Assembly: GCA_951406725.2 (NCBI GenBank)
Contig: OX597814.1
Span: 216,008,001-216,072,000 of the forward strand
DNA length: 64,000 nucleotides
Direction of reading: 5' to 3'
Origin: Octopus vulgaris
Taxonomy: Eukaryota
Shown: positions 4,104 to 62,702 of the stretch, one piece after another
Layout of the letters: every line of letters begins with the position of its first letter
Numbering within the stretch: position 1 is the stretch's first letter
The notes under the pieces: model-generated
What the model was told of the DNA's origin: nothing
What the model saw: the letters and a program-made list of their open reading frames with translations, nothing else
The model's database searches: none
Made by a program: the position numbers and the translations under genes

Positions 4104-4198
<95 letters not shown>

Positions 4199-16500: not shown

Positions 16501-19500
16501 TCTAATTGATGTATCAATACCAGCAGATGACGTGTCTCTAAAAGAAATGGAGAAACTTTCAAAATACAAAGACCTGGAAACAGAGGTAACTAGAATGTGG
16601 AATCTAAAAACAGAAACAATTCCTATCATAGTAGATGCATTAGGCATGATAAAAAAATATTCAGACAAATGCATAACTAAAACACCAAGACTTACGAACA
16701 CATATAACATACAGAAAATTGCACTACTAGGCACTGCACACATCCTACGCAGAACACTTTTAATACAGTAACCATCAGAGCATCACAACAAACCACAGCA
16801 CATACCCAAGGCACACAGAGCTGCGCTCGGTAGTGAAGTGAAAGCACGTTATAAAAATAAAACTACTGAATGATAAACGCATACCCTCCATCAGACACCT
16901 ACCATATTCTGAGCGCCTTGTTTCCCTGGGCATGGATTCACTGAAGCTCCAGCGTCTGGCGACGGACTTGGTAAACACCCTCAAAGTTATCAACCACCTC
17001 ACCAACAACAACACTGAACACCTTTTTGATCTCCATGTGTCTAACACACGTGGACATGCCTACAAAGTCAGAAAACAACACAGCTCCCATGACTTTTGGA
17101 AACATTTTTTCACGCTCAGAGTTGCTGAAGCATGGAATAAAGTGCCTGCGTCAGTTGTTGACTGCCATGACACTGCATCCTTTAAGGCCCTCATGCTTTC
17201 CGAAATCCGCCGAAACTACACCTGATTATACATACACTTTAGATGAGTTGTAGTGCACCTGAGCACTGTACACAATTATTATTATTATTATTATAATAAT
17301 TATTATTATAATAATAATAATAATAATATAAAGAGATGCTCATTGAAATTGGAAAATGTGGTATATCAATGTGATTATGAAGCCAGTGATTGTAAGAAGA
17401 TTTGGACTGATCAGAAAAGAAACTGAAAATTATGTTACGTACTGAGTAGAAAATTGTTGATGTGAGAACGATAACCACCATCACCACCATCATCATCATC
17501 ATCATCATTTAACATCTGCTTTCTATGCTGGCATGAGTTGAATGCTTTGACAGAAAACTTGGTAAGCTGGGTGAGATGGTGGGGGGAGGCACACCGGGCT
17601 CCAGTCTGATCTGGCTTGGTTCCTACAGCTGGATGCCCTTCCTAACATTAACCACTTCAAGAGTGTTGCGAGTGCTTTTTACGTGCCACTGGCATGGATG
17701 CCATTGACCTCACACCAGCATCAGCCATGACTACCGTCTCACTTGGCTTGACAAATCAGCACAAGTATGGTACATCGCCAAGGGTCTTGGTTACCTGTCA
17801 CTGCCTCCACGAGGCCAAACACTCGAACAGTACTTTTGACATGCCGTCAGGATGGGTGCCAGTCAGACAGCACTAGCATCGGCCATGACATTACTCGTTT
17901 CAACAGGTCTTCATGAGTACAGCATATCATCCAAAGATTGAAGGGTGCTTTTAATGGGCCACTTTATGCGACACAGGCATCTTGGTCGCTTGTCATTGCC
18001 TCTGTGGGGCCCAACATTCAAAGAGCGTACTTCACCACCTCATTCTATGTCTTCCTAGGTCTAACCTTCCACCACTAGATTGTAACACTTGTTCACACAT
18101 CTGTCCTCATCCATACGCATCACACGGCCATACAAGCACAGTCGTGTCTCTTGCGCACCACATCTGATGCTTCTTATATCCAACTTTTCTCTCAGGATGC
18201 TGACACTTTGTCATACATGCACACTAACATTACACATCCAGTGAAGCATACTAGCTTCATTTCTTTCAAGCCTATGCAAGTCCTCAGCACTCACAGTCCA
18301 TGTTTCACTGCCGTGTACTATAGCTGTTTGTATACAGGCATCATACAGTCTGCCTTTCACTCTGAGTGAGAGGACCTTTGTTACCAGTAAAGGAAGGAGC
18401 ACTCTGAACTTTGCCCAGCCTATTCGTATTCTAGCAGCTATCGTCTCAGAGCATCCAGCTCTGCAACTGACTTGATCACCTAGGCAATGGAAGCTATTGA
18501 CTACTTCCAGTTTTCTCCACTGGCATGTGATGGAATCTATTTCCTGTTCATGTTTAGTGCTTACACTGCCAGATATTTTAAGTATCTCAAGAATTATTCC
18601 TGATGGGCAGGGGGCTTTCCCTGTCTTCAGATCCTTAATTGCTTTATCTACCAAGGTACTGTCAATTTGGATAGCTGATCCTTCAGTCTGGTCGACATTT
18701 GGCAGACTCTCTTTCTCCCATTCATTCTCTTCTTTTAGCAACCTTTCATAGTGGTATCTTTTTCTTTGCAGAATCATTAAAAGCATGTGCACCATCACCC
18801 ATGCAGACACATTTCTCTCCTATGACATCATGATTCTCTCTCACACACTATCTTGCAATTCAAAACACTTCAAGTCTCTGATCCTCCAAATGCAGAATGT
18901 TTGTAAATCTATTCTTTTCTACTTCCCCTCTGGCTATGTAAACTTGTCTCCAAGCTTCCCTTCTGGCAATCTGATACAATTCCCTGCTACCACTACAATT
19001 CCAATCCTTCCAGACCTGTAAATTACATTGTTCCATTACTATGTTACCTTAGGTCAACTTGGGACTTTGTACCAACCACAGATCTGGTCAGTAACCCTCA
19101 ACAGGTTATCCTGTAGGAACCTCCAGTTGTCTTCCACGTTATGTGATGCTATAATCTCCTCTATTTCATCTGTCTACTTACAGAATCCTTAAGCTCCAGA
19201 CCATTCCTTGCCATCTTCTGGGCAGCCATTTAGCCCTGATCCTGAACACACTAACCACTAACCTATTTTGTGGGGTGATTTTCTTCACCTGGGAAAATTT
19301 TGGCATTTATGAGCAGCCATCTTTCCTGTTTCCTAGAGAGAATGTTGTCAATCTGACTAGTGTGCCCACCAGTCTGATAGGTGAACAGGGGACTGGCAGG
19401 TTTCCTGAAGTTTGAATTACAAATTTTGCTTTCTACAAAAATTCATTTGATTTTGTAAATGAACAAGCTGGTGTCATCATCATCATCATCATCATCATCA

Positions 19501-27500: not shown

Positions 27501-30500
27501 GTTAGCGAGGCAAGGGGGTCGTAGAACGTTTAACCGCTAGCAGCAGCAGCCGAGGACTTGGGACCAACATCGTCTGGATTATTAAAGCAACGGCTAGTGA
27601 GTGATTGCTTTGTGCACCCCAAAAGTGCACTAGGATATTCACACACACAAGTGCGTTACAAAATTATCTTCTTTTTCTTGTAGCGTGACCAAATAACATT
27701 TAAAGTGAAAGGTTTTGGAGTGACATCTGGAGCAAAGACAAGGAGCGCAAGAAGGATGCTGAATGGCTGCAAGAACTGAAACAAACAGTAGTCTGTCCAA
27801 AATAGGCAGAACTAGTCATTTCAGTTAGGGAAATGAAAGAAATCAGCAAAAAAATTAGCAACTGGAAAGCACCGGAACCAGATGAAGTTTAAATCTACTG
27901 GAACAAAAGTTTTGGTGAATGTCATGCCCGAATAGTTGCGCAACTCAACACTTGGTCAAATGCTGACAAAGTAATACCAGAGTGGTTGACATTTGGTAGG
28001 ACAGTGCTGTGCCTGAAAAACATTGAAAAAGGCAATACAGTAGACAATTACAGGCTGATATCCTGTTTGCCACTTATGTGGGAATTATTGACTGGAATAC
28101 TCGCAGAGTCAATGTATGAACATCTGGCAAAAAATGGAGTCCTGCCACATGAGCAGAAGGGTTGCAAGCGTAAGTGCAGAGGTACCAAGGATCAACTCCT
28201 GATAGATAAAACTGTGCTCAGAGACTGCAAGAGGAGGAAAAGTAACTTAGCCATGTCATAAGGCATACGATATGATCCCACATTCTTGGATTATGGAGTG
28301 TATGAACCTATTTGGTATTGCATCGAATGTTGAGCGATTGTTTGGAGAAAGTATGGCGAATTGGAGGATGGACCTGACAGCATACAGAAGTTTAGAAATT
28401 AGGAGGGGCATCTTCCAAGGGGACTGCTTGTCCCCACTGATATTTGTACTGTGCTTGATACCACTAACACTGATTCTGAGGACAGCAAAGGCTGGGTATG
28501 TATTCAAAAGCCGCCATTTGTTATTCATGGATGACCTCAAATTTTATGGTAAAGATGAAGCCAAAGTCAGTTCCCTTGTTGATAGGGTGTATAATTTCAG
28601 TGCTGATATCAGAATGGAGTTCAGATTGAGAAAGTGTGGTGTGTTAGTCTTGAGGTGAGGCAAAATCAAATGTATGGACGAGCTATCGATACCATCAGGG
28701 GATGTTATGAAGCAGATAGAAGAGACAGGCTATAAGTTCTTGGGTATTTTGGAAATGGATAAATTGATGGAAAAAGAAATGACAGAAAAATTTAGGGAGG
28801 AGTACTTACACAGACTGAGTCTGATCCTTAAGTCGAAATTAAATGGACAGAATAAGATTGCAGCTATCAACACCTGGGCAGTTTCACTCCTTAGATATGG
28901 AGCAGGAGTAATCGCATGGACAGTAGACGAACTAAACAGCTTAGACAGAGAGACAAGGAAGTTGCTAACTAGATATGGGGCACTCCATGCAAAAAAGTGA
29001 CACAGACAGACTGTATGTAGCAAGAAAAAGAGGGGGAAGAGGACTTATTGGATGCGAGCACAGCATTAGAGCAGAAGAAAACAACATAGCATGGTATGTA
29101 AACAATGCTATGGAACTGCTATTATTAGAAGTAAGAAGGTCAGGCTTGTGTAGGATGAAAGATTGCAAAGATAAAGCACTATACAAGAAATTGAAAATGA
29201 ATGAAACTGAAAATAGGTGGGTTAAAAAATAAAATGCATGGTCAATTTCATAGGGATGTTGAAGATAAGACAGACAGAGAAAAATGATGGCTGTGGATGA
29301 CTAAAAGTGATTTAAAACCAAAAACGGAGACACTAATCTGTGCTGCCCAAGAGCAAGCACTAAGAACAAACTACATAAAATACAGAATAGACAACACAGC
29401 AAAAAGTGATAAGTGCAGAATCTGTGGACAAACGGTGAAACCATATGGCATATTACCAGCCAATGTACACCACTAGCCCAGAAGAAATATATGAGACACC
29501 ATGACAATATAGCCAGGCTTGTCCATTGGACACTTTGCAACAAGTATGGATTTCGTAGTAAAGATTGTTTGCCAATATAACATGGCAGTCCTGGTTTAGG
29601 ACTAATGTTACTGTAATTTAGTGCCAGGAGATATTGTCTCCAGCTGGCTATAACGACACAATCTGATGAGATACAGTTTGGATTTGTGTCAGGCAAGAGC
29701 ACAACTGATGCTATATTCATAGTTAGGCAATTTAGGAGAAATAGAAAGCCAAAGATAAACCCCTGTATCTGGCTTTTGTTGACATGGAGAAAGCCTTTGA
29801 CAGGGTCCCCTACTCCTTTATCTGGTGGTTAATGCAGAATCTAAAGATAGATGAGTGGTTGGTGAGTGCTGTACAAGACATGTACATGGATGCTATAGGT
29901 AAGGTGAAGGTTAGAAACAAGTATAGCCAAGAATTCAGCGTAAAAGTAGGGGTTCACTAATGATCAGTCCTCAGCTCCCTCTTGTTCATCATAGTCCTCC
30001 AGGTAATAACAGAGGAATTTAAAATGGGCTGCCCCTGGGAGTTTCTCTATACCAATGACATTCTTCATATAGCTGAATCACTACCTGAACTAGAGAAGAA
30101 ATTTTAAGTGTGGGAGCAAAGTCTTGAATCAAAGGCCTTAGAGGATTTTAGCAAGAACCCAAGTCTTAGCATGTAGAAGAGCAGACAAATCACAAACCCC
30201 TTCAGGTTCTGCTCAATCTATAGAAACGGTGTAGGTAAAAACTCCATAAAATGTACCCAATGCACGTTGTGGGGCACATAAGAGGTGCAGCAATATCAGA
30301 GGAAGTTTAACAGGAAAATCAGTTTTTGTGTCTGGCAGAATCACAGGTAGAGTTAATACTAAAATTGTACAGAAAATAGACTCCATCAAATTTCAGCGGG
30401 GTAGACTAGAAGTAGCTGATAACATCCATTACTTAGGTGACCAGGTCGGTAGTGGGAGTGGAAGCTCTGAGAGCATAGCCGTGAGAATACGAATAGGCTG

Positions 30501-32056
30501 GGCTAAGTTCAGAGAGCCCCTACCTCTGCTAGCAACAAAGGGCCTCTCTCAGTGAAAGGCAGATTTATGAAGCCTGTGTGTGAACAGCCATGCTACATGG
30601 CCGTGAAACATGGGCTATAACAGCCAAGGACATGTGTAGGCTTGAGAGAAATGAAGCCAGTATGCTTCGCTGGATGTGCAATGTCAGTGTGCATGTTCGA
30701 CAGAGTGTAAACATCTTGAGAAAAAACTTAACCATAAGAAGCATCAGATGTGGTGTGCAAGAGATACGACTGTGCTGGTATGGTCATGGGATACACATGG
30801 ACAAGGACAGCTGTGTGAAGAAGTGCCACACACTCTAACAGTGGAGGGAACCTGTGAAAGAGACAGACCCAGGAAGACATGGGATGAGGTGGTGAAGTAT
30901 GACCTTAGAACATTGAGCCTCACAGAGGTAACCAAGACCTTTGGCGATATGCTGTGTTTGAAATGCCTCATCAAGCCAAGTGAAATCATAGTTAGGCCTC
31001 ACAGAGACAGTGACAAGTGACTGAGAGCTTTGGTAATATAGCATGTTTAAGAAGACCTGTCAAACCAAGTGCGCTCATAGATGTGGTTGATGCCAGTATT
31101 GTGTAACAAGCACCCATGCCAGTGGCACGTAAAAAGCACTACTACACACTTGAAGGGGTTGGTGTTAGGAAGGGAATCCAGCCATAGAAACCATGCCAAA
31201 TCAGATTGGAATCTGGTGCAGCTCCCCAGTAAATGATGATGACGATGGTGGTGGGTGGTGGTGGTGATGATGGTGATAATGATGATGATGATGGTGATGA
31301 TGATGATGGAGGAGGAGGAAGAGGAGGAACATGATACAATGCACAACAAATACGTCAACCAACCTTTACTATTTCTGTGTCTTTAGGGAAAACAACAAAG
31401 TAAACATCTTTGATATTAGCGGAATTTGGAGCTGACTCTTTGACTGCTTCATACATAGTTCCAGGTAGTTTTTCAATGGGATAATTCAATACTCCAGCTC
31501 CTAATATAGGAAATGCAAGGCTTTCTGCCCCGAGACATGAAGCATTTGCTAGACAAGAGTATACCATGCGAGTCAAGTTTTGCAATATCTGAAAAAATAA
31601 TTGTTTAGTAATTGATAATTAACATTTTATTAAATTATTTTCTTATTACAGGAAGAAATCATTAAGTTGTAATGAAAATATTCTTTCAGTTCTATATTTA
31701 AGAGAGGAGGAATTATGTACATTATTAACATTTGACAGATATTTGTCCTCATCTTGTTTGTTGTTAACAATGTTTCGGCTGATATACCCTCCAGCCTTCA
31801 TCAGGTGTCTTGGGGAAATTTCAAACCTGGGTTCTCATTCCTAAAGTATTTTTCGTTATTGTTGTTATTATTACTATTATAATTATTATTGTTGTTGTTG
31901 TTGGTGTTGTCATCGTTGTTGTTGTTGTTCAGGTCACTGCTTGGAATCGAACTGAGAATTTTGGTGTTAATAGCCTGCACTCTTAACCACTATGCCATAT
32001 GCCCGTGGACTACTAACCCTAAGATTCCGAGTTTGATTCCAAGCAGTGACCTGAAC

Positions 32057-32090
<34 letters not shown>

Positions 32091-35000
32091 TTAACATTGA
32101 AAAATACCTTAGGAATAAGAACGCAGGTTCAAAATTTCCCCAAGACATGATGAAGGCTGGAAGGTATATCAGCCGAAACGTTGTGTTAACAATAAACAAG
32201 ATGAGGACAAAAATCCATCAAATGTAAATAATGAATATATTCTTTGATCAACACATTGCACATGGAATTTGTTGTTTCAACCAGAAATGTTTTACAGATT
32301 CAAATAACATTAAACAACTTCTAGTGATTATTGGATTAACAGATCATGTGGTCATTGGATTAACACATCATTTGACAGAAGGATCAACACAGATCATGTG
32401 ATAGCAGGAAGTCTGGTCTGAGTGAAGATATGGATGCTGTGAATGGAAAGAGAAATGTTCCAAGATTTGGCGGTTGCACAGTGTAATTCAGGTGGAATTT
32501 TGTAATTAACAAAAACAATAATAGGGAAGAGGAGAGATTAATTATTATTTACAAGAGGGAAATCTGGGTGAGAACATACTGCAAGAAGCAACAAAACCAC
32601 CCACAAGGCAGGGTGCCACAGGCACAAAAGACTCTACACTGCACACAAGAGACTATGGTTGAGTCGAAATGTTCAGGGAATATCTACAATAGAGTCTACA
32701 TCAATTTCAAACAACCAGAATTCATGCTTTGGAAATTGTACAGAATACCACAACACCAGACTGTCACACTGTAGCCCATACTGTACGTCACTGGACATCA
32801 AAGTACATGCTTCTGTCTTGAAGCAGACGGAAGTGTTGTATGACTGGAAAAACACATCTGTGGATTGTGCATAGTTTTATGGACAATTCCGTTCATGCCA
32901 CAGGGATGCTGGATCAATGATAACCTAGGGTTGTACAACAACTCTTTCAATAAATCAATATAATATGATTGATACTTACTGAATCAGAGGAATTTTCATC
33001 CCAGGAAGGTAATGCCAGATGAAATACATTCTTACATTTGAGGTTATATCCTTTAGTGATGGCTATTTTAGATGTAGAAATACCTTGAGGATAATTCTGG
33101 TTACATTCAACTTGTATCTCTGGACCAGCAGCATTGAGAATAAATTTGGAGATAGAACCATCATTAAGCTGGAGGTGTTCATTGGTGCTGTTAACGATGA
33201 CATCAACCTACAAAAGTAATTAATGGTAAACAACTAAGGAACATTCCATGGAGAGAAGAGAGATACATTGTTGCAGTTGATATTGTTGTTAAGAAAGGCT
33301 CTACAGAATGGCTGTAGTAAGTTTGAGGTTGTTAAAGTTAGCAAAAGATTTACTCAAGATATCAGATGTGAAGGAAATGAAATGTTTGAGTTAGATTGAG
33401 AAAATGTTTTAATTAACTGTAATGATTCCTCATTTGGAAATGAAATAACAATTAAATATAAATATGTTAAGTGAATCTATTTACTCACAGATACATTAGA
33501 AATTGAACCAATCATTAAGTTTATTTTAATGCCAGCATTTTCTCCGGATGCCACATTAGTTCTGGGTATGATAGAGACTGTTTTCAGTTGTGGACCAGGA
33601 AAGGATGGGCTTGATAATTTAGTTTCTGGAAATAAACAAATATCAGTGTGTCATCATTATGACCATCATCATCGTTCAACATCTACCTTCCATGCTGGCA
33701 TGGGTTGGATCATTTGACAGGAACTTGCCAGGTAGAAGATGGCACCAGACCTCTATGTCTGTTTTGGCATGTACAGAAGTCTGGTGCAGTTTTCCACCTG
33801 GCCACACACCTACTGATGCAAGTTGAACAAAATGACATATAAAGACACATCCATCATAGCAAAAGTGAGGTCCTAAATGCATTGTGCTTATTCCTGTCCA
33901 TATTGGGCCCTACACTGACATTTGCCCATGTCAACCATACCCTTCACCACATCTCATTTTCCTAACACCCATCCCTCCATTACACTTCTAACTATGGCCC
34001 TACTTTGTTGCTGTAAGCATTTGAGAGCAGAATCTGCACAACACTTCTCACCCCTTTTCATTAATACCAGTTGCCTCTCTTTCATCATCATCATCATCTC
34101 CGTTCGTACAACCTTCCATTGATCATCCCTTTTTGCCCCTTCCCTAATCTTTCCCTTCCCACTCCTAGCTACATCTTAGTTTGCCATTCTTGATGTTTAA
34201 CACTTCTATATGCATTTATTCCCAACGCCCTCTCACATCCGTTATCAATACTCCCTCCAATTTTGTCTCCCCACTCACTATAGCCATCCTCATGTATCTC
34301 TAACTCCCATCTCTGTCCCAGTTGATCATCATCATCAACCCATCCCTTCCACTGTCACATCCTGTGCATCATCTCTGTACTTCCTTGTCTATGAATTTAT
34401 GATTCTGCTGCTCTCCTCTGCTACTCCTACGTTGCTACTTGTCACTCCCTCCTACCCAAACCTCATCTAACTCTCACTTGCCCCACTCCATACAGATATT
34501 TGCCATCAACTCCACCCCAAACCATTGTTCCTCACTCACTACATCCACCTCTAGCCCCATCACTAACCATCTGCCACGCCTCTCATCCCATATTCTTATG
34601 AAATTACCCTCTCTTTCTTACCTTCCTCATCCACATTCTATATTCTCTCCCCATACACACATCCTTGCAAACTGAGAGTATGCACTTGCACCCTATGACC
34701 ACCATCTTTCTCCCTTCCAGCTACTTTCATTCACTTTTGTAAAAAATATAAGCAAGTCGTGAATTTCCCCCATATCAAGACACCCCTACTTGACCCTCTA
34801 TCAAATCTCTCCTACCCCGGATATAAAGCCACCTACCCGTCTCCCAAATTCACTCCCACCCACTTTCACAGGGCTCTTTCCATTCTTCACTTTCTATTAC
34901 AAGTTACTTGGTGACCTCACTAGCACTGGGGTCATGGAAAAAGCAGCTTCCGGTCCACACTGTAAAGTGCTTGGTATTAAGAAGGGCAGCCAGCCATGGA

Positions 35001-38000
35001 AATCATGCCTAATGCATCTCACCAGATCCTGTCAAACTGCTTAACCCAAGCCAAAATGGAAGATGGACATTAAATGATGAGCAAGGCATATAAATTGTCT
35101 AAGACTCCATAAGAGAAATACCAGGCACTTGTACATTTGTCAACAGAGAAGTTGCGTTAATCATAAAGTTTACAATATCTTAAGTAACACATCTGGTTGT
35201 GGTTGCTGTAGGAGACAGCTAGTGAAGGGACTCCATCAAAGGTTATGTCCCTGGCCCCAAATCCCTGAGTGAGAAATAACTGCCAGTAAAGTGGAGTTTG
35301 AGTGTGGGCAGTATGGAGTTGGTGCAGGAAGCAGGGACTTGGAAAGAGGACATGGGAAGGCACCCAAGCCTTTAAACTCATGCGGATGCATATCTATGTG
35401 TTTATGTGCATATGGTTCGGTGTAGTCAGTATTGGACTCTTAGGTTGTGGTGTTGGAAAGACTGCTGGTGGAAATCGTAATGTTATGGTAGAGTTTGTAG
35501 ATAACTGATCACATACTATTTTTCATGCAGGCATATAATAATAATAATAATGAAATTATTGTATACAGTGCTCAGGTGCACCACAACTTGTCAAAAGTGC
35601 ATATAAAGTATATGCAGTAATGTACAAATGTCTGGGAAGCGAACAGTGTATGAATCAGATACATGCTTGTGTGCGTATGGAGGGGAGAAAATCAGGTGTA
35701 GTGTTGGCGAATCTCAGGAAGCATGGAAGTTTTGAAGGATGCAGTGCTCCGACAACTAACAACTGATACCGGCAGTTTGTTCCATGCTTCAGCAACTCTT
35801 AGCATGAAAAAATGTTTCCGAAAGTCATGGGAGTTGTGCTGTTTTCTGACTTTGTAAACATGTCCACGGGTGTTAGACAGATGAAGTTTGAAAAGGTGCT
35901 CAGAGTTGTTGTTTGTAAGATGGTTAATAATTTTATGGGTGTCTGCCAGGTCAGCTGCCAGACGTTGGAGTTACAATGTATCCATGCCCAGAGAAGTAAA
36001 ACTCACCCTTGCAGTTCAAGCTTTAGTTAAGTGTCTGAATGAAGAGAGTTCTTGAATATTGTTCTTTTCTAAGCAAGGTTTAACCTTCCCCGTCTGCTAC
36101 TATTGAAGTAACGGTTGCACCTCCCTATCACTCTCTACTTGATGTTATAATCCATGGCATTTTTCTTCAATAACCATATGTGTCTAGCCAGGGTTGTGGC
36201 ATTATGTCTCTCCTGGACATTAATGGAAATTTTTAGGATTGTTAAATATGGTTCTGAAAGGACCTTTTGTCATACCCACATATTTCCACATATTCTTCTG
36301 CTTGCTAAAGTAATAGTCAAGTGATACTGAATGGAAATAAGTACAAGTTTTCACTGTATAATATGCTGAATAGTAATACAAAGACAGTTCATAATTACTG
36401 AGAAAAAAATTAATAGAAACAATGAAAATGTCTTCTCACAAAACTGACTGACACAGCTTTGAGAAGCACCTTAGGTTGTTCTAAGCAGAAAAAGAAAAGT
36501 GAGAACATCTGTGAAGTATCAGAGCTCATTCTGTCTAGAAATGCAAAATAACAATTTGAAGCTGGAAACACAAAGCACAATCATTGAGTCAAAAGAGAAT
36601 TGGAGTTGGAGAAATGTAAGATTTTATGGGACTTTCCTATTCAAATGGAGAAAAAGTTAGAAAACAAAAGACTAGATATTACAGTCATAGATAAGGAAAA
36701 GAGAAGCTGCTTACTTATCGACCCATTATGTCTGTTTGATTCCAGGATCGTAAAGAAGAAGAAAAACAAAGTAAATACAATCCCTTAAAATTTGAAATAG
36801 GAAGAATTTGGAGCATGCAAACAGTAAAGGTGGTGCCTATAATAATTGGTGTGTTGGGAACAGGAGGCCAAAATATAGACAAATGGCTGAAGGATATTGA
36901 AATAGAATACCCGGTAGAGCTTCTACAGAAAGTTTGTCTTTTAGGTACAGCAAGGATTATCAGGAGGGTTGTAAGCACTTGAAAGACTGCTAAAAACTTG
37001 TGGCTACCTGAGGCTGCAGGTAGTAACTTGCTATCAACATAATTCCTTGCAGAAATAAAACCAAAATAGTAATTATCAGTAATGTTTAACATAGAATGAC
37101 GTGACAAGACACCGTAATATTCAATATTAACAAACAAATGTTTTACCTCTGTTTCGGAGATATTCATCAAATTCCTGTTAAAACAAAAAAAAATCACTTT
37201 ATATTTTTATTTTCCCATTTTTGCAAAGAGAAGAGATTTAATTTAACAAAAACAAAATATTAGAAATATTTAATGATTTATTTCTACTCTGTAATAAGGA
37301 AATGAGGAAAATTACTTTGTCACTCAGATCAAAGATATTCTATCCATGGCCTTCCTGCCTTTTGGGAGACATGAGACCTGTGTCAATATGGTAATACAGT
37401 GAATAGAGCAGAAAAACCTCCCATGCTTTACATGGCCACCAACATGGTGTTAGTGAAGTTAAACATGTGGTAATGGTGTCTTCATGTAGCTGAAGTTCTA
37501 CTGTTTTTTTTTCTATCCAGTTACCATCATGGTTAGAACCGTTGAACCTTGTGTTTGCAGTCAAAATGTCTATCAAGAATGTTGAATTTGAGGCGTTTTT
37601 GTTACATCCTGTTTGTCCAAAGCTATTTCAGGAACAAACAGGAGTACAAGGTAATTATTTTTACATTGTAAGGAAGAATGAGAGGAAACCTGACAATTCA
37701 GACCGTGGTCCTTCATAACAAAGAAAAAAGAAAAGATTCAAAGAGAAAAAGGTTCTCAAACAATTCTACAGTGGACAGAAATTTCCTCCATCTTTTTGTT
37801 ACAGTGGAAAGGCATAAATATTATATTTTGGTATTAATACTGCTTCTATCGTTATTATTTTTAATAGACCTTCTGGCTATTAATTATCTTTAATAAGCCT
37901 TCTGGCGATTAATTACTATCTGATGTACCCAGTAATTCCCAGGAAAGCAGGGCTTATCCCTTGGTTCCATTCTCATAATAGTTTCACTAATCCAGTGACA

Positions 38001-38549
38001 ACAATACAATGTATGTAGCCCTTAAAACGGTTTTTGTGTATTTACACAGGATCTTGTTTTTAAGAATTCCTAATAAGTTATGAATACCTAAATTGTGAAG
38101 TCAGTTATATAATAACATGAAATTAATTACCCAATAGTAAGAATTCAAATAAAGTAGCCCCGAAAAGGGCTTTAATATGTTCCCAGAGTTTATAGAACTT
38201 AGGAGGAAATACTAATAAGTTATGTATACTAAAATTGTGAAGCATGTTATGTAATAACAGGCTACTCAGATATGAGATAATAACACTTCAAAGTAAATAA
38301 CTCTGAAAAATGCTTTTGTGCATTCACAGGAACTATTACCCTCAGTGGTGCTAGTGTTGTTAAATTCATGAATAACTCACTAACCGAAATAGGTGGATCT
38401 ATTGTTTAGGTAAATACTATTTACTTGTTTAAGCGTTGTACTGGATAAACTGTGAAAATAACTCAAATAGTTCAATTACTAAGAAATAAGCATACTCAAT
38501 TTGATTTATACCAAATAACTTATGAACATGAATGGGTTATTTCCCTTGG

Positions 38550-38772: not shown

Positions 38773-38812
<40 letters not shown>

Positions 38813-41800
38813 ATCCCTTTCAGGAGCGAATGGGTTATTTCCCTTGGATGTTTAAAAATAATATATTAGTTACATGTAGTACTTATAAGAATCCATTCCA
38901 AGGGCCCTATTATAGATTTTTTCAACAATCTAAGTATGTCACTAGTTTTCTAGACATAAATTCTACTCACGTGTCAAGTTTCATCAAAATCGATAAAACG
39001 ATGTAGGAGGAGTTAGATAACAACTCCACAAACAAACACACCCACAGATTTCCACATATGTAGTAGATTTTTTTCTTAATAAATTTGCTGGCTATTAATT
39101 ATCTTTATTAAGCCTTCTTGTTATTAAATATTTTTAATAAACCTTCTGGCTATTAATTATTTTTAATAAACCTTGCGGCTGTTAACTATTTTTAATAAAC
39201 CTGCTGGTTAGTAATTATTTTTAATAGGCCTGGCTATTATTTTTAATAAACTTGCTGACTATTAATTATTTTTAATAAATTTGCTGGGTATTAATTATTT
39301 TAAACACACCTTCTGGCCATTAGTTACCTTTAATAAGCCTTGTGGTTATTAATTATTTTTGATAAACTTTCTGGCTATTAATTACCTTTAATAAGCTTGT
39401 GGTTATTAATTATTTTTAATAAACCTTCTGGCTGTTAATTACCCTTAATAAGCCTTGTGGTTGGGCCTGGTGCAGCCTCCTGGCTTCCCAGACCTCGATC
39501 GAACCGTCCAACCCATGCTAGCATGGAAAGTGGACGTTAAACGATGATGATGATGATGATAATGATAATGATAAAATCTTCTGGCTATTAATTATCTTTG
39601 TGACTACTGAGGACATGCACAAGCTTGCAAAGAATGAAGCTGGTATGATCCACTGGATGTGTAATGTCAGTGTGCATACTCGACAGAGTGTTACTGCCTT
39701 GAGAGAAAAGTTGGATTTAAGAAGCATCAGATGTGGTGTGCAAGAGAGACGACTGTGCTGGTATGGTCATATGTTGCGTTTGGATGTGGACAGCTATGTG
39801 AAAAAGAGTCACACCCTATCAAGAGAGGGAACCTGTGAAAGAAGTAGACCCAGGAAGACCTGGGATGAAGTGGTGAAGCACGACTTTCAAATGTGACCGA
39901 GACATTTGGAGATATGCTGTGCTTGAGAAGACCCGGCAATGCAAGTGAGACCATAAACATGATCTATGCCAGTGCAGTATTACCAGCCCATTTAAGAGTA
40001 ACTTTCAATCATTGGGCAATAAACTGCACTTACGAAGACCTGTTGAGGCAAGTGAAATCCTGCTCATGGCTGATAACAGGACCACCTGATTGGCACCTGT
40101 GCCAGTGGTGTATAAAAGGCACCATTTGAGCGTGATCATTGCCACTGCCGCCTGACTGGCACTCGTGCTGGTAGCATGTAAAAGAGCACCATTCAAGCAT
40201 GGTTGATGCCAGTACCACCTGACTGGCTCATGTGCTGGTGGCATGTAAAAAGTACCCACTACACTCTCAGAGTGGTTGGCATTAGGAAGGGCATCCAGCT
40301 GTAGAAATTTTGCAAATTAGATTGGAGCCTGGTGCAGCCTTCTGGCTTCCCAAACCTCAGTCAAACTGTCCAACCCATGACAGCGTGGAAACCGGATGTT
40401 AAACGACGATGATGATGATGAAACCTTCTGTTTATTAATTACCTTTAATAAACCTTCTGACAATTAATTATCTTTAATACGCCTTATGGCTATTAATTAT
40501 TTTTAACTAGGAAACGCACCCATCCTTTGGACAGTTTAAGTTGCTTTGGTGTTATTTTTTCCCCAGTTACTTGAACTACCGAGAAGGTTTATGAGTAGCA
40601 CAGCAATCTATGTTTCTGATTAATCTAGGAACAGAAAATCAAATTGAAGGCTGGTTATTGTGGAGGTCGTTGCACTTTAATGATCATAGAACATATGAGT
40701 TTGCAAGTGATGCAAAATAGAGCTACTGAAGTGTTTTGGGAGTAGATTACGGATAATGACTACAAAATATAGTTGTTTTTTAAGTATATTTTGTTCACTC
40801 TTATTTTCATGTATATCATATAAACATCTACATCTTTTGGAACATTGTCATTTTATAAGACTTTACTGGCAAATTTTTAAGTCAACATTTATTTATATGA
40901 AAGAAAACTATTGGTAACATAACACGAATTGGGCAGAGTTAAAGAATACACACACCATCCGTCTTCCATGTAATCCTAACCCTAAACCCTAACCCTAGCC
41001 CTAACCCTAGCCCTAAACACTGGGTGTGCATATTATTTACCTTCACCCACATGTTGTTCTAAAAATAACAGTTAAATAAGATTTTTTTGATAAATCTTTT
41101 AAACTAACATAAACTTTTATTTATATAAAAACTAACATTTCATTTTCTGAGCCGAGAATCGAAACTGAATCTAAGGATTCTCGCTGACCTGATCCACCAC
41201 TGGCCGAACAGGTGTGACAGAAATTTCTTTATCCTGTCAAAATGTGATGGATGGATTTCTAACCTGAGCTGTGTCACTGAAGGTTCAACTGGACAGCAGG
41301 TGACCTAGATAAGTAGTAAGGACTCCAATGGTATGTCTGTTCTTCTTGCTAGGATGACCATTATAAATAGTTACCTTAGATACAGGACAGATAAGCAGGC
41401 AGCTTGCAACAGGTAAGCAACCAACAGAGAGCCACATAGTCAGCATGAGTGAATTATGATAGCCAATGACACAGCACAGTAACAGGACACAAAAAGATAG
41501 GACAGAAAAACAACACAACTCAACCAAATGTTCAATGCACACACAGACACAAAATATGCCATGCAGTCTCTCATCAAATCAACATTCTACTTCTCCTGTT
41601 GTTATTTTTACTTTGCCACCTCAAAGCTGTTGGTAACTTCATGTAGCAGCCTTCATTGATATTGTAAATTAAACTTTGAGTATCCAACACGTAGATGCAA
41701 GTGTGGATCAAATAAATTATTTAAACTACATTCCTCATTGTTTTACTTTGATGTCGTCCTATCTCCATCGGCGACACCCGACAACATACATTGAACCATC

Positions 41801-44800
41801 AACATCACATTTCGCTGCCCATACTGCTACAATTTACATGAAAGAAAATTGCCATAAGAGGTAAGATGGAGAGAAGCTTCAGCTAGTGTCCTCACAGGCA
41901 AGGCACATAGGTATAAAAATCTTCTGGGAAGGTAACATCGATGGAGTAGGGGTATGTGATAGAGTGCTTAAGCTCAGGCTAGTCTTGCAGAATAGTATAG
42001 CTACAATTATCTCTGCCTATGCCCCCGCAAGTGGCCCTATCAAATCCTCCGAAGGACCATTTTTATGATACTCTCCTACAGGCTACCTCAAGGACGAGTG
42101 GCAATGACCTCATCTTTGCAGCTGGAGATTTTAATAGGTATGTTGGGTGGGAATCCGGTATCTTCACTGGTGTACAGGGGGGGGGCATGCTATTGGTTCC
42201 TGAAAAGAAGATGGAACCAGGCTACTGGAGTTTTGTGATGCATTTAACCTTTTAATCTGCAACACTAACTTCAGGAAACCAGATAGCCACCTGATAACCT
42301 ATCAATCAGGTGACTCTGCTAGCCAGATTGATTTCATCCTCACCAGACAGCGGGACGCAGGGTTGCTCTTAAATACAAAGACCCTCTCAGGTATGGAATG
42401 TACCCCCAGCATAGACTAGTCATTAGGGACTTTAGACTCGAGGCCAGAAGGATGCCAAGAAGCAGACCAATCCAGAAAAGAAGGATTTGGAAGCTAAAGA
42501 ACCCTTCACATGGTCTGAGATTTAGGGATATCCTCATCAAGAAATTTGATGAGAGCGAGGAGGAGCTACAGTCTTCGGACATAGAAGGTAGCTGGAAATT
42601 CCTACGAGACAGCTTACTGAGTGCCACAGACCAAGTCCATGGATGGAGCAAAGTCCCTTCCAGACCTAGAGTTATGTGGTGGTGGAATTATACAGTAGAC
42701 AGAGCCATCAGGACAAAGAAACAGGCCTGGAAGGGTTGGGGTAGCAGGGAACAGTACCAGATAGCCAGAAAGGAGGCTAGGAGACAGGCATACATAGCCA
42801 AGGGCGAAGCAGAAAAGAAGTTTGCCAATGTCCAGCAACATAAAGACCAAAGAAATGAAGTATTTCGGATTGCAGTGTGTGAGAGAAAATTGTGATGTCA
42901 CAGGAGAGAAATGTGTCCGCATGGATGATGGTGCACTTGCTTTTAATGATTCCGAAATGAAAGAGGTTTGGAGAAGCCATTATGAAAGACTGCTGAACGT
43001 GGAAAATGAGTTGGAGGAGGAGAGCCAGCCAAATGTTGCCACAGTAGAGGGACCAGCTATCCGAATAAACAGCACCATTGTAGATAAAGCAATTAAGGTT
43101 ATGAAGCCAGGAAAAGCCCCTGGCCATCAGGAATCACTGCTTAGATGCTTAAAACATCTGGTGGTGTGGGCTATGGCCTAGTCACCTGCATTGTGAACCA
43201 GGTAGTTCATGATGGAGTCATACTGCTAGTTTTATTATATTCTTCACCAATTTCATGAACTAAAGTCCCTCTTTAAAGACATCACAAGATGGCAATGTCC
43301 TTCTGTGAAAGACGCTGTTCAAAAATACTAATATGCATTTTCATGTCTCAGATGTTTCTTTTATTTCAATGTTGGTTTACATTATTTTACTCAATTCTTC
43401 TTCCTTGAATATACACCAATTATGTCAATGCTGCAGCAGCAGCAAGTGAAGGCGCAATGGCCCAGTGGTTAGGGTAGTGGACTCGCGCGGTTTTGATTCC
43501 CAGGCCGTGCGTTGTGTGTGTTTATTGAGCGAAAACACCTAAAGTTCCACGAGGCTCCGGCAGGGGGTGGTGGCGACCCCTGTTGTACTCTTTCACCCCC
43601 AACTTTCTCTCATTCTTTCTTCCTGTTTCTTGTCCCCGACTTGCTACGCAACCACTGAGCCTGGATGCGCATTCATCCATCCGTCGAAGCTCTCAGTATT
43701 GGGGGTTGACCTGCTTTCTCTTCTGCGGGTCTTACGAATAGCAAAGGACCACGTTTCCGACTTCTCCTACTATAGAGGCGCGATCTTGCGAGCTCTGGGA
43801 CGAAGACTGCTTCACTCAACAAACAAACAAACAAAAGCAGCAGCAGCAGACCACCACCACCACCGCCACCACCAACCTTATATGGAACAGCATGAAATGT
43901 TGGAGAATGCAGTTGACAGCTGGTGCATCAAGTATTAGGAGAGGTGAAAATCAAGAGAGGAATCTTCCAGGGGGGACAGCGTGTTCCCACTGATATTCAT
44001 GCTGGGAATGATCCCCTTGAGAGAAATACTACAGGAAACAAAGTTCTGGTATTACAGTTTTATATTTAAGAGATGAGGAATTAAGTACATTATTTACATT
44101 ATTTATATTTGATGGATTTTTGTCCTCATCTTGTTTGTTGTTAAAACAACGTTTCGACTGATATACCCTCCAGCTTTTCATCAGGCGTTTTGAGGAAATT
44201 TTGAACCTGGGTTCTCATACCTAAGGATGTTGTTGTTGTTGTTCAGGTCACTGCTTGGAATCAAACTCGGAATCTTGGGGTTAGTAACCTAAAGCTATTC
44301 ACTAAGACTGAGAAAGAAATTGAGAGCTTGATGGCAACTGTGCAGATGATTAGCAAAGATATTGGCATGGAAGTTGAGATCAAGAAATGTGGTGTAATGA
44401 TTCTCAAAAGGGGGAGAAATCAGTAAAAGCCATGGGATCAAGCTGGAAAGTGATGAAACTATAAGGGAATTCAGAGAGGAAGAATATAGGTACCTGGGTA
44501 TCATTGAAAGAGATAAGATGAATAAACACGAGATCAAAGAAAAGTTAAGGAAGGAGTATTTGAAGGAAATTTGGCTTGTGCTCCAATTGAAGCTAAATGG
44601 CTGCAATAAGATTAGAACAATTAACACATGGGCTGTTGCTTTGATGAGATATGGGGCAGGAATAGTATCTTGATAGAAGCATGAATTACAAGAGATAGAC
44701 CAGAGAACATGTAAATTAATGACAATGAACAAGAAATTAGAACCCCAAGAGTGATGTGTCAAGGTTGTATGTAAAGGAGGAGGGAAGGACGACAGGGATT

Positions 44801-47800
44801 GGTATGTTGTGAATGGTGTGTCAAGGAAAAGGAGAATAGCCTGGCTTGGTATGTCAAGGGGAATAAAGAAGAAAGGATTGAAGCAGTGAAAATGCAGGGA
44901 ACCTTAAAAGTGAACGCAGCCGTAGATCCAACACGATTTAAGGAAGGCTAGAGAAATCAGATGAAGGAAATTTATTAGGACAAGAACATGCACAGTCAGT
45001 TCTTGAAGAATAAAGATGAGATTAATTGGAATAGAACCTGGCAATGGCTGCAGAAAGGAGACTTAAAAGGGCCTATTGGAGGCATTAGTGTGCAACGCTC
45101 AAGAACAAGCTCTCAGAACAAACTCCTCTAAATATCACATTGATAAAAGCACTGACTTGCCACAGTGTAGGATGTGCTCTGAGAAGAGAGAAAGTATAAG
45201 AGAAAGCTGGTGCCACGTAAAAAGCACCCAGTACACTCTGTAAATTGGTTGATGTTAGGAAGGGTATCTCAACTGCAGAATCCATACCAAAACAAAGAAT
45301 GGAACCAGGTTTGGCTCTTTGCCTAGCCAGTTCCTGTCAAACTGTCCAACCCATGCCAGCATGGAAAACAGGTGATAAATAACGAGCATGATTCTAAGTT
45401 TTATTTTCATTTCGATTTCCTTTGTTTATTGCAGAATATTTTCTTTGTTTTGGTGAATTCCAAGAATATCAACATAAAACAACAAACAACAAATACATCA
45501 ACCAACCTTTACTATTTCTGTGTCTTGAGGATAAACCACAAAGTTTACAACTTTGATCTGGCTTGAATTTTGGTTTGAGTAGTTTTTCACTGCTTCATAC
45601 ATAGTTCTGGGTAGGTTTTCAATGGGGTACTTCAATGTTCCAGCTCCTAATATAGGAAATGCAAGGCTTTTTGCTCCTCTTCTCTCAGCTTTTCCCAGAC
45701 AAATGGTTATTATTTGAGTCAAGTTTGCCAGAGTCTAAAAAAAATAATTGTTTAGTAATTGATAATGAACATTTTATTAAATTATTTTCTTATTACAGGA
45801 AGAAACCATTAAGTTGTAATAAATATATCCTCCTCTCACAACTCCTCTCACTCCTGCCACTGCTAAACACAACTGTCATTCCTATCACTCTTTAGTCCTG
45901 CAAGGGACAAGGCAACCTCACTCATGCTGCTGCTACAATAAAACAGACCCAATCCACCGTGTAAAATGGTTGGTGAATGAAGAGAGGGAATGCAGACCCA
46001 AGAGGAGTCTTTGGTGTTGTTGAGGACATGACAACCTCTCTAGTGCTCGTGCCATGACAGAGAAATACATACCAATACAGACAGTAAAACAGAGAAATAT
46101 GTTTTAATATAGTCTTATTTATCAGTCACATAACTGTTGTTAGGCCATGAGGCTTTTTTCCCTTCTATTTATATATAAAAGTGTCCTGTTCATCGATATC
46201 TTCTGCTTCCTTCCAATGATAACTTGGAAGAACAAATATTAAACAGGATGCTGACATTTGCTTTATGATTCTCACACAACATGCATAAGGTTCTCTTCAA
46301 ACATTAACTGTTTCAATAAATCAAATACATATGAATAATACTTACTAAATGTGAGGAGTTTACACCCCAGGGAGGTAATGCCAGATGAAATACATTCTTA
46401 CAGTTGAGGTTATATCCTTTAGTGATGGCTACTTCAGAAGTAGAAATACCTTGAGGATATTTCTGGCTACATTCAGCTTGTATCTGTGGACCAGCAGCAT
46501 TGAGAATAAATTTGGAGATAGAACCATCATTAAGCTGGAGGTGTTTATTGGTGCTGTTAACGATGACATCAACCTACAATAGTAATTAATGGTAAACAGC
46601 TAAGGAACATTCCGTGGAGAGAAGAGAGATAAATTGTTGCAGTTGATATTGTTGTTAAGTAAGGTTCTACAGAATGGCTGTAGCAAGTTTGAGGTTGTTA
46701 AAGTTAGCAAAAGATATACTCAAGATATCAGATGTGAAGGAAATGAAATGTTTGAGTTAGATTGAGAAAATGTTTTAATTAACTGTAATGATTCCTTATT
46801 TGGAAATGAAATAACAATTAAATATAAATATGTTACGTGAATCTATTTACTCACAGATACATTAGAAATTGAACCAATCATTAAGTTTATTTTAATGCCA
46901 GCATTTTCTCCGGATGTCATATAAGGTCTGGGTATGATAGAGACTGTTTTCTGTTGTGGACCAGGAAAGGATGGGCTTGATAATTTAGTTTCTGGAAATA
47001 AACAAATATCAGTGTGTCATCATCATGACCATCGTCATCGTTCAACATCTACCTTCCATGCTGGCATGGGTTGGATCATTTGACAGGAACTTGCCAGGTA
47101 GAAGATGGCACCAGACCTCTATGTCTGTTTTGGCATGTACAGAAGTCTGGTGCAGTTTTCCACCTGGCCACACACCTACTGATGCAAGTTGAGCAAAATG
47201 ACATATAAAGACACATCCATCATAGCAAAAGTGAGGTCCTAAATGCATTATGCTTATTCCTGTCCATGTTGGGCCCTACACCGACATTTGCCCATGTCAA
47301 CCATACCCTTCACCACATCTCATTTTCCTAACACCCATCCCTCCATTACTCTTCTAACTATGGCCCTACTTTGTTGCTGTAAGCATTTGAGAGCAGAATC
47401 TGCACAACACTTCTCACCCCTTTTCATTAATACTAGTTGCCTCTCTTTCATCATCATCATCATCTCCGTTCGTACAACCTTCCATCGATCATCCCTTTTT
47501 GCCCCTTCCCTAATCTTTCCCTTCCCACTCTTAGCTACATCTTAGTTTGCCATTCTTGATGTTTAACACTTCTCCTATATGCATTTATTCTCAACGCCCT
47601 CTCACATCCATTATCAATACTCCCTCCAATTTTGTCTCCCCACTCACTATAGCCATCCTCATGTATCTCTAACTCCCATCTCTGTCCCAGTTGATCATCA
47701 TCATCAACCCATCCCTTCCACTGTCACATCCTGTGCATCATCTCTGTACTTCCTTGTCTATGAATTTATGATTCTGCTGCTCTCCTCTGCTACTCCTATG

Positions 47801-60875: not shown

Positions 60876-61782
60876 CTGAAAATAAACAATTAAACATTCT
60901 TCTCTCTCTCTTAAAAGAACTACTTTATTCCATATAAATAGTAATGATATTCCTTTCTGAAAATAGGATTTAGCAAGAGAATACATGCTAACTTGTAGTC
61001 ACCCCCACCTCCACACACCTTTTATATAGCGACAAGGCTTTATAACGTTATTTCCATCTATTTCTTCTACCAAATGGACTAAAAATACATTGAAGAACAT
61101 ACTTGAAACTTTCAAAGTCTGAAAACAGTGAAACTGGTTAGTAAAATGTGATCTTCCACCTCTTATGAAACGTTTTTGCTTAAAACATTTATTAAAACAG
61201 GCTTCAGATGGTGTAGATTCCACTAAGTTGGGAATTTGGTGAGAAAAAAATGTTTTTGAGGGAGTGAAGAGAGGAGTTTCAGAAAATTCACACAAACCCA
61301 AATTTGTTTCCTCATAACTTTTGGGAAAATGGTTATTTTTAAATGAAAATTTCCACAAATATCTTTCAAGGTGTGTATATTAGGATAATAATGGAATTTG
61401 ATGCAAAAATATAAATTGCTGGGATAGCATACATAAATATTGATACACATCAGATATTTGTTTTTGAGGGGGGGGGGGGGAGTTGTTGTTTTTTACAACA
61501 TATTCCAATAGAATTGGAATTTATACCATCTGAAGCATATTTATAGAAAATTTCATTAAAAAATTATGTTTTTCTTGAAATTATAGGGAAAGAAATCTGT
61601 TGGGACATACATGTATGGGTATGGTACAGGTAATACTCAGACCAGTTGCTGTATATTATTGCATATGTGTGACCAGAAGTCCAAAATAAACATATAATCT
61701 TTAAACTTTAATCAAGGATATATATATATATATACACACACATATATATATACATATATATATGTATATATATATATATATA

Positions 61783-62410
61783 TCATCATCATCATCATCA
61801 TCGTTTAACGTCCGTTCTCCATGCTAGCATAGGTTGGACGTTTCGACCGGGGATCTGGGAAGCCAGAAGGCTGCACCAGGCCCCAGTCTTATCTGGCAAT
61901 GTTTCTACAGCTGGATGCCCTTCCTAACGCCAACCACTCCGTGAGTGTAGTGGGTGCTTTTTACGTGCCACCTGCACAGGTGCCAGGCGAGGCTGGCAAC
62001 GGCCACGGTCGGATTGGTGTATTTTATGTGCCACCGGCACGGAAGCCAGTCGAGGCGGTGCTGGCATCGGCCACGAGTCGGATAGTGCTTTTTACGTACC
62101 ACCAGACCAGGGATCCTGGCTGGTTTAATTCGATTTCGATTTCGCTTGCCCCAACATGTCTTCACAAGCAAAGGGGTTGGCATGGGTGCCTGTCGTACGG
62201 TCGGATTGGTGTATTTTACGTGCCACCGGCACGGAATATATATATATATATATATATGTATGTATATATGGTACATTTTAAAACCTTTCTTGTAATTTTT
62301 CTTTCACCAGATCAGACTGGAGCCTGGTGCAGCCCCTGGCTTCCCAGACCCCGGTCGAACTGTCCAACCCGTGCTAGCGCGGAAAACGGACGTTAAACGA
62401 TGATGATGTA
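61783..62410. mobile_element. Two RTE-family 3' ends in inverted orientation
   Basis: catcgtttaacgtccg (about 61800) versus cggacgttaaacgatg (about 62390); CpG-rich, so probably young. Confidence 0.8.
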
Positions 62411-62702
62411 TATCTCACTCATATGGCAGTGTTGTCTGCTTCACACAATTTACCTGCTTACCACATCACATGACTCAGGCTGATGGTCATGTGAGAAGTA
62501 ATTTCTAACAGGGTAACCTGTTCAAGGAAAGAAACTTGGTTATTCAGTTGAAGAAGGCTTCCAGAGCTAAATGGCCTCTTGTAAATACTTCAGAGTCAGC
62601 CAACGCTATAACTGATGGCTCAACATTATTGGACGTAAGAAAATAAAACTTATTTCAAGAAATTTATCTCTTAAAGAATGATTAGTAGAAAATGTAAATA
62701 AC

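Follow-up and report, generated by a model that had tools for sequence, protein, structure and literature searches.

A probable SINE-like octopus repeat with a tRNA-like head and a minimal hammerhead motif, inserted as a palindrome in the manner of Penelope-like elements

A palindromic insertion of a dispersed repeat was analyzed in a 64,000-nucleotide stretch of the Octopus vulgaris genome (assembly GCA_951406725.2, contig OX597814.1, positions 216,008,001 to 216,072,000 of the forward strand; this whole stretch is called the window and is numbered from its first letter). The repeat joins a tRNA-like head, a microsatellite spacer and a 3′ module carrying a minimal hammerhead motif of the kind found in Penelope-like elements (PLEs). 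On balance, the evidence favors a non-autonomous octopus repeat of about 250-320 bases, resembling a short interspersed nuclear element (SINE), which would be made by RNA polymerase III (Pol III) and inserted by a PLE reverse transcriptase and GIY-YIG nuclease. In the literature searched, a high-copy element that unites a Pol III-type head with a PLE minimal-hammerhead end and the marks of PLE insertion appears to be undescribed. A sequence-only reading of this DNA had proposed a hybrid retroelement, processed by its ribozyme and moved by Penelope machinery; the linkage of a tRNA-type head to a PLE-type hammerhead and the PLE-style insertion stood, whereas the ribozyme processing was weakened. 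Contigs from four coded sequencing runs with three organism labels (runs X1, X18 and X19 are named below) were aligned to 31600-32056 at 80% likeness and gave 28,821, 7,153, 3,566 and 731 aligned contig records per run.

The insertion comprises the following features:

31670 to 31686, plus strand: left copy of the target-site duplication, 17 bp, part of an older repeat (31328-31684) and 16/17 identical to 32229-32245.
31687 to 32008, minus strand: left arm, which is the longest of the copies and carries the whole head, the spacer, the 3′ module and the tail; in run X1, 284 loose ends whose flanks differ support 31687 as its main 3′ end.
31687 to 31719, minus strand: 3′ tail of 33 nt, present in the left arm and in the copies at 44 and 58 kb; the right arm is without it.
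31853 to 31930, minus strand: left-arm spacer, degenerate (AAC/AAT)n, assigned from the sequence.
31931 to 32008, minus strand: tRNA-like head including a brief 5′ leader; its A box lies at 31997-31987 and its B box at 31953-31943.
32007 to 32009, no strand: head-to-head junction with a probable 3-nt GGG microhomology; 32009 is mutated in this copy.
32007 to 32233, plus strand: right arm, inverted and 5′-truncated, A box and tail absent, with an (AAT)12 spacer at 32057-32094.
32229 to 32245, plus strand: right-hand copy of the target-site duplication, which shares its initial 5 nt with the final 5 nt of the tail-less right arm.

The two arms correspond in three inverted-repeat blocks (31806-31899 with 32054-32147, 84%; 31767-31806 with 32145-32184, 93%; 31714-31769 with 32184-32239, 88%), which confirmed the palindromic arrangement that had been proposed. 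Read on its own strand from 32008 to 31687, the left arm contains a short leader, the A box, the B box and the (AAC/AAT)n spacer, followed by a module of some 135 nt to which another 33 nt are attached. The right arm begins within the head and ends 33 nt short at the 3′ side. The 3′ modules of the arms are 89.6% identical over 134 columns and the shared part of the head is 82% identical over 45 columns. A single mismatch in 17 positions separates 31670-31686 from 32229-32245, a match equaled in none of 20,000 random 55-base windows, and at the mismatched site most contigs show the matching base. Because one target duplication encloses both arms, the palindrome is one insertion event, and two independent insertions were ruled out on the same ground. 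The target-site duplication and the one-sided tail had both been overlooked in the sequence-only reading. At the center the arms overlap by GG; with the G that makes up 20,391 of 24,796 summed depth at position 32009 in run X1, the overlap grows to three bases.

The layout of known PLE insertions includes an inverted 5′-truncated copy at the 5′ end and a tail of 30-40 bp, often at one end (PMC8557442). Here, the right arm is such an inverted 5′-truncated copy at the 5′ end, and the 33-nt tail stands at one end only. The inverted truncated arm and the one-sided tail fit this layout and, with the target duplication, point to a PLE-style insertion of this locus. It is highly improbable that the locus represents an ordinary SINE mobilized by a long interspersed nuclear element (LINE), or a palindrome of the type of a miniature inverted-repeat transposable element (MITE), with the hammerhead as a passenger or chance feature and the arms as separate insertions. 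SINEs do account for 11.6% of the O. vulgaris genome, their young families being mostly unclassified (PMC13282606), and Rfam reported no hammerhead here, both of which would suit this explanation; against it stand the enclosure of both arms in one target duplication and the combination of a one-sided 33-nt tail with a complete minimal-hammerhead consensus, which fits PLEs. A MITE was ruled out, as the junction point varies between loci, the depth at the junction base in run X1 is about 3% of the head depth (at 31993) and solo copies exist; terminal inverted repeats that are fixed around a constant center were not found. The 3′ end of the element matches none of the LINE fragments in the window.

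The right arm (32007-32010) and a separate insertion at 44 kb (44288-44290) are cut at a nearly identical point of the head. The head part of the right arm is 95.5% alike to that of the 44 kb copy, compared with 82-84% to the left arm, and a single non-CpG change in the module, absent from the 5% list of run X1, is common to both. The nearly shared cut possibly reflects a truncation hot spot or a sub-lineage; in the latter case the two arms would derive from different templates.

The hammerhead motifs of the two arms are located as follows:

31764 to 31809, minus strand: minimal type I hammerhead of the left arm, damaged; 5′ strand of stem I at 31809-31805, core CUGAUGA at 31804-31798 and extra A at 31797.
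31764 to 31809, minus strand, remainder of the same motif: stem II formed by 31796-31792 with 31781-31777, GAAA at 31776-31773, predicted cut after 31769.
32144 to 32187, plus strand: minimal hammerhead of the right arm; both C2.1 and C3 are missing, and the cut is predicted to fall between 32182 and 32183.

The consensus of the motif comprises the core with one extra A, a stem II of 5-6 bp, ACGU replacing stem III, a GUU triplet and a stem I of 5 bp. The complete hammerhead consensus previously assembled from the window copies agreed with the multi-copy consensus from the sequencing-run contigs, and two of its details were refined. Its AACGUU palindrome in place of stem III is present, but only the central ACGU of these six nucleotides can pair as stem III, A14 and U17 belonging to the core; its 5-bp stem II does pair, but can be extended to 6 bp through a G-U pair. 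As had also been noted, every copy is mutated, and all four in the window are damaged: the left arm has a changed G16.2 and lacks 2 nt of stem I, the right arm has lost C2.1 and C3, and the 44 and 58 kb copies carry an extra A plus changes in stems I and II. The conserved core CUGANGA/GAAA/NUH is broken in both palindrome arms and is present in the 44 kb copy and the multi-copy consensus. In the contigs, the left-arm site 31771 reverts to the core base (837k of 1,137k summed depth in run X1) and the 3′ strand of stem I is made whole by a 2-nt insertion; in the 5′ strand of stem I, the core and stem II of the left arm, no other majority change was found relative to the contigs.

Minimal PLE hammerheads have an extra base between positions 9 and 10.1, a G10.1-C11.1 pair, a helix I of 4-5 bp and a palindromic 15.2-16.2 segment (PMC4209133). 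The octopus motif shows all four of these features: the first three in the sequence and in the consensus, and the palindrome, as ACGU, in the right arm, the 44 and 58 kb copies and the consensus. Pairs of minimal hammerheads on opposite strands, 100-700 bp apart, are also known in PLEs (PMC4209133). A metagenome scan with the core and stem II returned 48 loci that resemble the octopus element over the motif only. Eight reading frames from these loci were chosen by eye and four of them matched GIY-YIG (E 1e-4 to 3e-3), one above the Pfam cut-off and three from one family; each of the four lies 100-180 nt upstream of the motif on the same strand. Stem I was paired in 54 of 72 cells across 18 distinct contexts, against 32.2 ± 3.8 in shuffled sets (reached in none of 20,000), and in 22 of 28 cells against 13.0 ± 2.4 across the 7 contexts with ACGU, kinship being ignored in both tests and stem II being fixed by the search pattern. 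By its motif and its insertion layout, the 3′ end of the element is judged to be of PLE type, and O. vulgaris contains 30 recently active Penelope families (PMC13282606, Table 1).

Among the contexts of the same scan in which loop III has 2 nt, 7 of 11 were palindromic too, and the exact word formed by the core plus stem II was common to many unrelated repeat families in eukaryote-rich metagenomes.

Run X1 contains three non-CpG variants of 5% or more inside the motif (31784, 31788 and 31800), all at N7 or in loop II, which together make up about 12 of 48 positions. In a small test made after the fact, this placement had p ~0.013-0.017, and it hints at constraint on the source copies. The sparing of catalytic positions would also be expected for a strict retrozyme of the Sm-alpha type, in which tandem sources give multimeric Pol III RNA, the RNA is cleaved as a dimer and the ligated circles are copied by a PLE enzyme. 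Further points in favor of this improbable alternative are that re-ligated circles would likewise keep both sides of the cut, that the inverted arm requires a second template copy, that non-LTR (long terminal repeat) retrozymes have been proposed as PLE derivatives (bioRxiv 10.64898/2026.07.22.740005) and that, in a cofold prediction, the computed three-arm majority dimerizes through the palindrome (-21.9 versus 2 x -8.9 kcal/mol), in a geometry that is not the active one. However, the class is defined by tandem units, no tandem copy was found in the window, no junction of a head start to a tail was found among the joints listed, and minimal PLE hammerheads were without activity as monomers and of low activity as dimers in vitro (PMC4209133). 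Two joints within 2 nt of the predicted cut (31768-32007 in X19 and 31769-31728 in X1) were discounted as evidence of cleavage, because the 2-nt deletion of the left arm itself breaks alignments there.

It was also considered that the palindrome might be a device pairing its two ribozymes, and this was ruled out. A read-through transcript of the palindrome is predicted to form a hairpin of -283.6 kcal/mol with 79% of its bases paired. Since the motifs lie on opposite strands, a given transcript contains just one of them in sense orientation, which is predicted to be hidden within the hairpin, and the head-to-head palindrome cannot supply the dimer.

At the other end of the element, the A plus B box pattern has a single match in the whole window (31997-31944, minus strand) and none in 100 shuffles. 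The spacing of the boxes and the distance of about 12 nt from the start of the left arm to the A box agree with the SINE promoter consensus (PMC8969392). Boxes 30-35 nt apart near the 5′ end, as in tRNA-derived SINEs, were found in the left arm only; in the right arm the A box is absent and the B box carries a T at a CpG. The tRNA-like head that had been claimed is therefore supported by boxes beyond chance, but it is complete in the left arm only and ARAGORN and Rfam called no tRNA, so that it is termed tRNA-like by its boxes only. The (AAT)n spacer described with it is present, but as mixed (AAC/AAT)n rather than pure AAT. From the A and B boxes we infer a Pol III origin of the element; a T4 run is absent from the sense strand of both arms, which is compatible with Pol III and lends it weak support.

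The main rival to a PLE-partnered SINE-like element places the head inside a longer unit. The copies would then be 5′-truncated 3′ ends of a longer PLE, either autonomous or with deletions, and a tRNA-derived piece would have been captured in its 3′ untranslated region or its pseudo-LTR; any use of Pol III would be secondary. We regard this as a serious possibility of clearly lower probability than the favored reading, and the retrozyme and the LINE-SINE or MITE explanations fit worse than it does. PLE insertions are typically 5′-truncated and leave many solo minimal hammerheads (PMC4209133; PMC8969392), and two of the three independent arms are indeed cut inside the head. The tRNA-like start has a conserved leader of 5 nt in front of it, and the loose ends of run X18 at 32008 are only moderately diverse (agreement 0.59). 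An internal head is opposed by the A and B boxes, which are intact and lie at SINE distance from the start of the longest arm. Moreover, the long arms of two independent palindromes, this locus and an X19 joint at 32007 (range 32007-32009), start within 2 nt of each other, and none of the copies in the window has remains of PLE coding sequence in front of it. Protein searches with the antisense translation of the head, aimed at the upstream sequence of other copies, returned no matches. Octopus copies may share further sequence upstream of the head, a point taken here as a lead only.

Two further copies of the family are present in the window:

44052 to 44290, minus strand: independent solo insertion of the same family, with truncated head, short (AAC)n, hammerhead motif and tail.
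57936 to 58177, minus strand: copy of the 44 kb insertion within a 95% segmental duplication, hence not independent; its module is 98.5% identical to that of the 44 kb copy.

Head and module are joined in all three independent arms, whose modules are 88-91% alike. Their linkage, which the sequence-only reading had expected of other copies, recurs in the independent 44 kb insertion and in at least seven same-strand joints of the contigs. The tens of thousands of distinct contigs suggest that the family is very abundant; the summed depth of 1.5-8.1 million on the module and 0.1-1.1 million on the head, with single contigs contributing 30-90, is not a copy number, and the parts are not ranked by it. 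In run X1, loose ends whose flanks are unrelated accumulate at 31687 (284) and at 31712 (151) and 31718 (128), which shows that tailed and tail-less 3′ ends are both common. At least five contigs carry other head-to-head junctions (31762-32031, 31766-32004, 31804-32010 and 31814-32035 in X1; 31768-32007 in X19), at varied points, so that the inversion recurs and its site is not fixed. A head-to-tail unit was found neither in the window nor among the joints listed (15 of 48, with 12 of 29 rows of joint letters). Two scans of GTDB for further copies gave no matches, and viral contigs gave none to the motif and five chance matches (17-21 nt) to a 3′ stretch.

Run X19 showed an excess of plus-strand A>G changes at 31728, 31766, 31784, 31803 and 31818, together with T>C at 31810 and A>C at 31770. 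At 31803 the A>G share was 19.5% in X19 and 2.1% in X1, and at 31818 it was 21% and 0.25%, respectively. The excess could result from adenosine-to-inosine (A-to-I) editing of hairpin transcripts, with the caveats that the organism label of X19 differs from that of X1, that X19 being RNA is a guess and that X18, likewise guessed to be RNA, is without the excess.

Several results weigh against the interpretation as a Pol III-made element inserted by a PLE enzyme. As regards the head, ARAGORN called no tRNA gene in the window; the models it gave once the threshold was lowered were malformed and did not identify the parent tRNA. Rfam found no tRNA, neither at E up to 1 in the whole window nor at E up to 10 in 31660-32260. 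The head folds no better than shuffled sequences (z +1.8). Upstream of it, the one loose-end row listed (X18, 32008, 10 contigs) has an agreement of 0.59, on a scale where diverse flanks gave 0.41-0.57 and conserved continuations 0.63-0.81. The contig alignment skipped the spacer, and the head-module joints are thus not base-by-base bridges in other copies. As regards the insertion, visual inspection of the 44 kb site and its alignment with a related LINE fragment revealed no clear target duplication. No PLE protein match was obtained in the window by tblastn with seven translated frames from PLE-like loci (best E 0.36). As regards the motif, no compensatory stem change at 5% or more was present within the octopus family contigs, and the stem I test omitted 15 of the 48 metagenome loci, which had no GUH at the tested offsets, collapsed the other 33 to the 18 contexts and left relatedness uncontrolled. 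The claim that the element is ribozyme-processed became doubtful on four counts: three tailed copies and the right arm keep sequence on either side of the predicted cut, the joints listed include no head-to-tail unit junction, published minimal PLE hammerheads are inactive as monomers and weak as dimers (PMC4209133), and the palindrome puts its two motifs on opposite strands. For the hammerhead, where an Infernal search had been suggested as a check, the same two Rfam searches were likewise blank, as might be expected for damaged copies of a motif without a monomeric stem III. A reading frame with reverse transcriptase and GIY-YIG domains was found neither in nor beside the window copies.

For the favored reading the following mechanism is proposed. 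A staggered cut would leave two 3′ ends 17 bp apart. One of them would prime at the 3′ end of the RNA and copy it from tail to head, giving the left arm, and the other would pair by five bases with an AU-rich repeat 33 nt inside the RNA and start a shorter second complementary DNA (cDNA), the right arm; such internal priming would leave a tail at one end only. The two cDNA ends would then join through GGG/CCC. Two template copies would be needed, because the arms overlap in sequence. Twin priming is a model for L1 and is borrowed here, so that the process is better called twin-priming-like. The hammerhead would most likely be carried within the 3′ structure recognized by the Penelope enzyme, and only a dimer formed through the ACGU palindrome would be able to cut; the dispersed copies probably do not depend on such cleavage. 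The palindrome itself would be a by-product of integration, and its read-through transcript, predicted to be a long hairpin, would bury the motif.

Known systems resemble the octopus element in parts. Like the minimal hammerheads of PLEs (Cervera and de la Pena, 2014, PMC4209133), it has the extra base, G10.1-C11.1, a 5-bp helix I, a palindromic 15.2-16.2 segment and no loop III, and it shares with them many dispersed solo copies and opposite-strand pairs 100-700 bp apart. Unlike in PLEs, the octopus motif follows a tRNA-type head within about 130-200 nt and not a reading frame, and its helix II has 5-6 bp compared with the published 7-8 (PMC4209133). The canonical endonuclease-positive (EN+) PLEs and the non-autonomous Chlamys element MRC1 (Craig et al., 2021, PMC8557442) show the same 5′ truncation, inverted truncated 5′ copy and 30-40 bp tail at one end; in contrast to the EN+ PLEs, the octopus copies are without a reverse transcriptase or GIY-YIG frame, and the accessible description of MRC1-type elements contains no tRNA head. 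Sm-alpha and Sj-alpha of Schistosoma are tRNA-derived, SINE-like, high-copy repeats with a type I hammerhead and are thought to be made by Pol III (PMC2770079, PMC6765202, PMC8490949). In Sm-alpha, however, canonical hammerheads cut tandem units from multimers (PMC2770079, PMC6765202, PMC8490949), whereas the octopus element is minimal in form, dispersed and marked by PLE insertion, with an inverted truncated arm and a one-sided tail.

The non-LTR retrozymes of animals are likewise short, non-coding and AT-rich, carry a type I hammerhead and have been proposed as non-autonomous partners of PLEs (Cervera and de la Pena, 2020, PMC7229834; 10.64898/2026.07.22.740005, Li, Clavereau and Pollet, 2026). 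They differ in being defined by head-to-tail tandem units and circular RNA, and the accessible text of these two sources mentions no tRNA head; the octopus element showed no tandem units in the window and no circles in the contig data. Retrozymes have been viewed as a possible new type of SINE (PMC8969392). The octopus SINEs OK, OR1 and OR2, compared by description only, share the tRNA-derived head, the octopus host and the high copy number. Either OR1 or OR2 is listed as a CORE-SINE, the sources disagreeing on which (PMC4758252, PMC4824008), whereas in the octopus element only a microsatellite and about 50 nt lie between the head and the hammerhead. The pairing of a tRNA-derived SINE with a hammerhead thus has a precedent in Sm-alpha and Sj-alpha, and PLE-derived retrozymes are also known. 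No published octopus hammerhead repeat and no dispersed tRNA-headed element with PLE insertion marks was found in a literature search that covered neither subscription journals nor the repeat collections Dfam, Repbase and Zenodo (library of PMC13282606), and any of these collections may already list the family as SINE, Penelope or unknown.

The window is overall rich in repeats. Its right half is largely covered by nested segmental duplications of 95-98% identity: 38796-47008 with 52627-60892 (95%), 32940-34851 with 46306-48220, and 36554-38175 with 49919-51537. The older AT-rich repeat whose end served as the target of the palindrome is unclassified, about 360 bp long and 81% alike in its copies at 31328-31684, 45471-45831 and 59358-59718. 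Tandem arrays with a period of about 29 bases occupy 39070-39462 and 52900-53385, with scattered monomers at 37854, 40421, 51212 and 54341. Other abundant repeat fragments include 4129-5821, 17979-18563, 29805-30990 and 61782-64000, and some of these fragments contain reverse-transcriptase pieces resembling RTE-type LINEs with a short repeat family at their ends, as labeled by eye. A minus-strand exon at 7409-7810 has 98% identity to a PARP14-like protein (mono-ADP-ribosyltransferase) of Octopus sinensis; all 11 of its matches were from Octopus, many of them paralogues.

Should the head turn out to lie inside a longer PLE, the element would amount to an ordinary remnant of a PLE carrying an unusual tRNA-like insert. 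SINEs are described as LINE-dependent, and a dispersed tRNA-headed family with PLE insertion marks would add PLEs as SINE partners and place Sm-alpha, retrozymes and PLE ends in one series. An element of 300 bases at very high copy number would also be a compact system for questions about PLEs, such as which RNA the enzyme recognizes, why the tail stands at one end and whether the hammerhead cut is needed. Palindromic copies may contribute to the high A-to-I editing of octopus; a parallel exists in frog, where a palindromic repeat feeds such editing (PMC5625713). The boldest version of these ideas, plausible and still somewhat short of probable, is that the family is a true tRNA SINE partnered with a PLE and not a LINE, with a Pol III head, a PLE 3′ end and a constrained dimer hammerhead in tens of thousands of octopus copies, whose palindromic inserts are a candidate major source of the double-stranded RNA behind hyper-editing. 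In a PLE-partnered SINE with frequent palindromic insertion, each event would plant a ready-made long RNA hairpin in the octopus genome.

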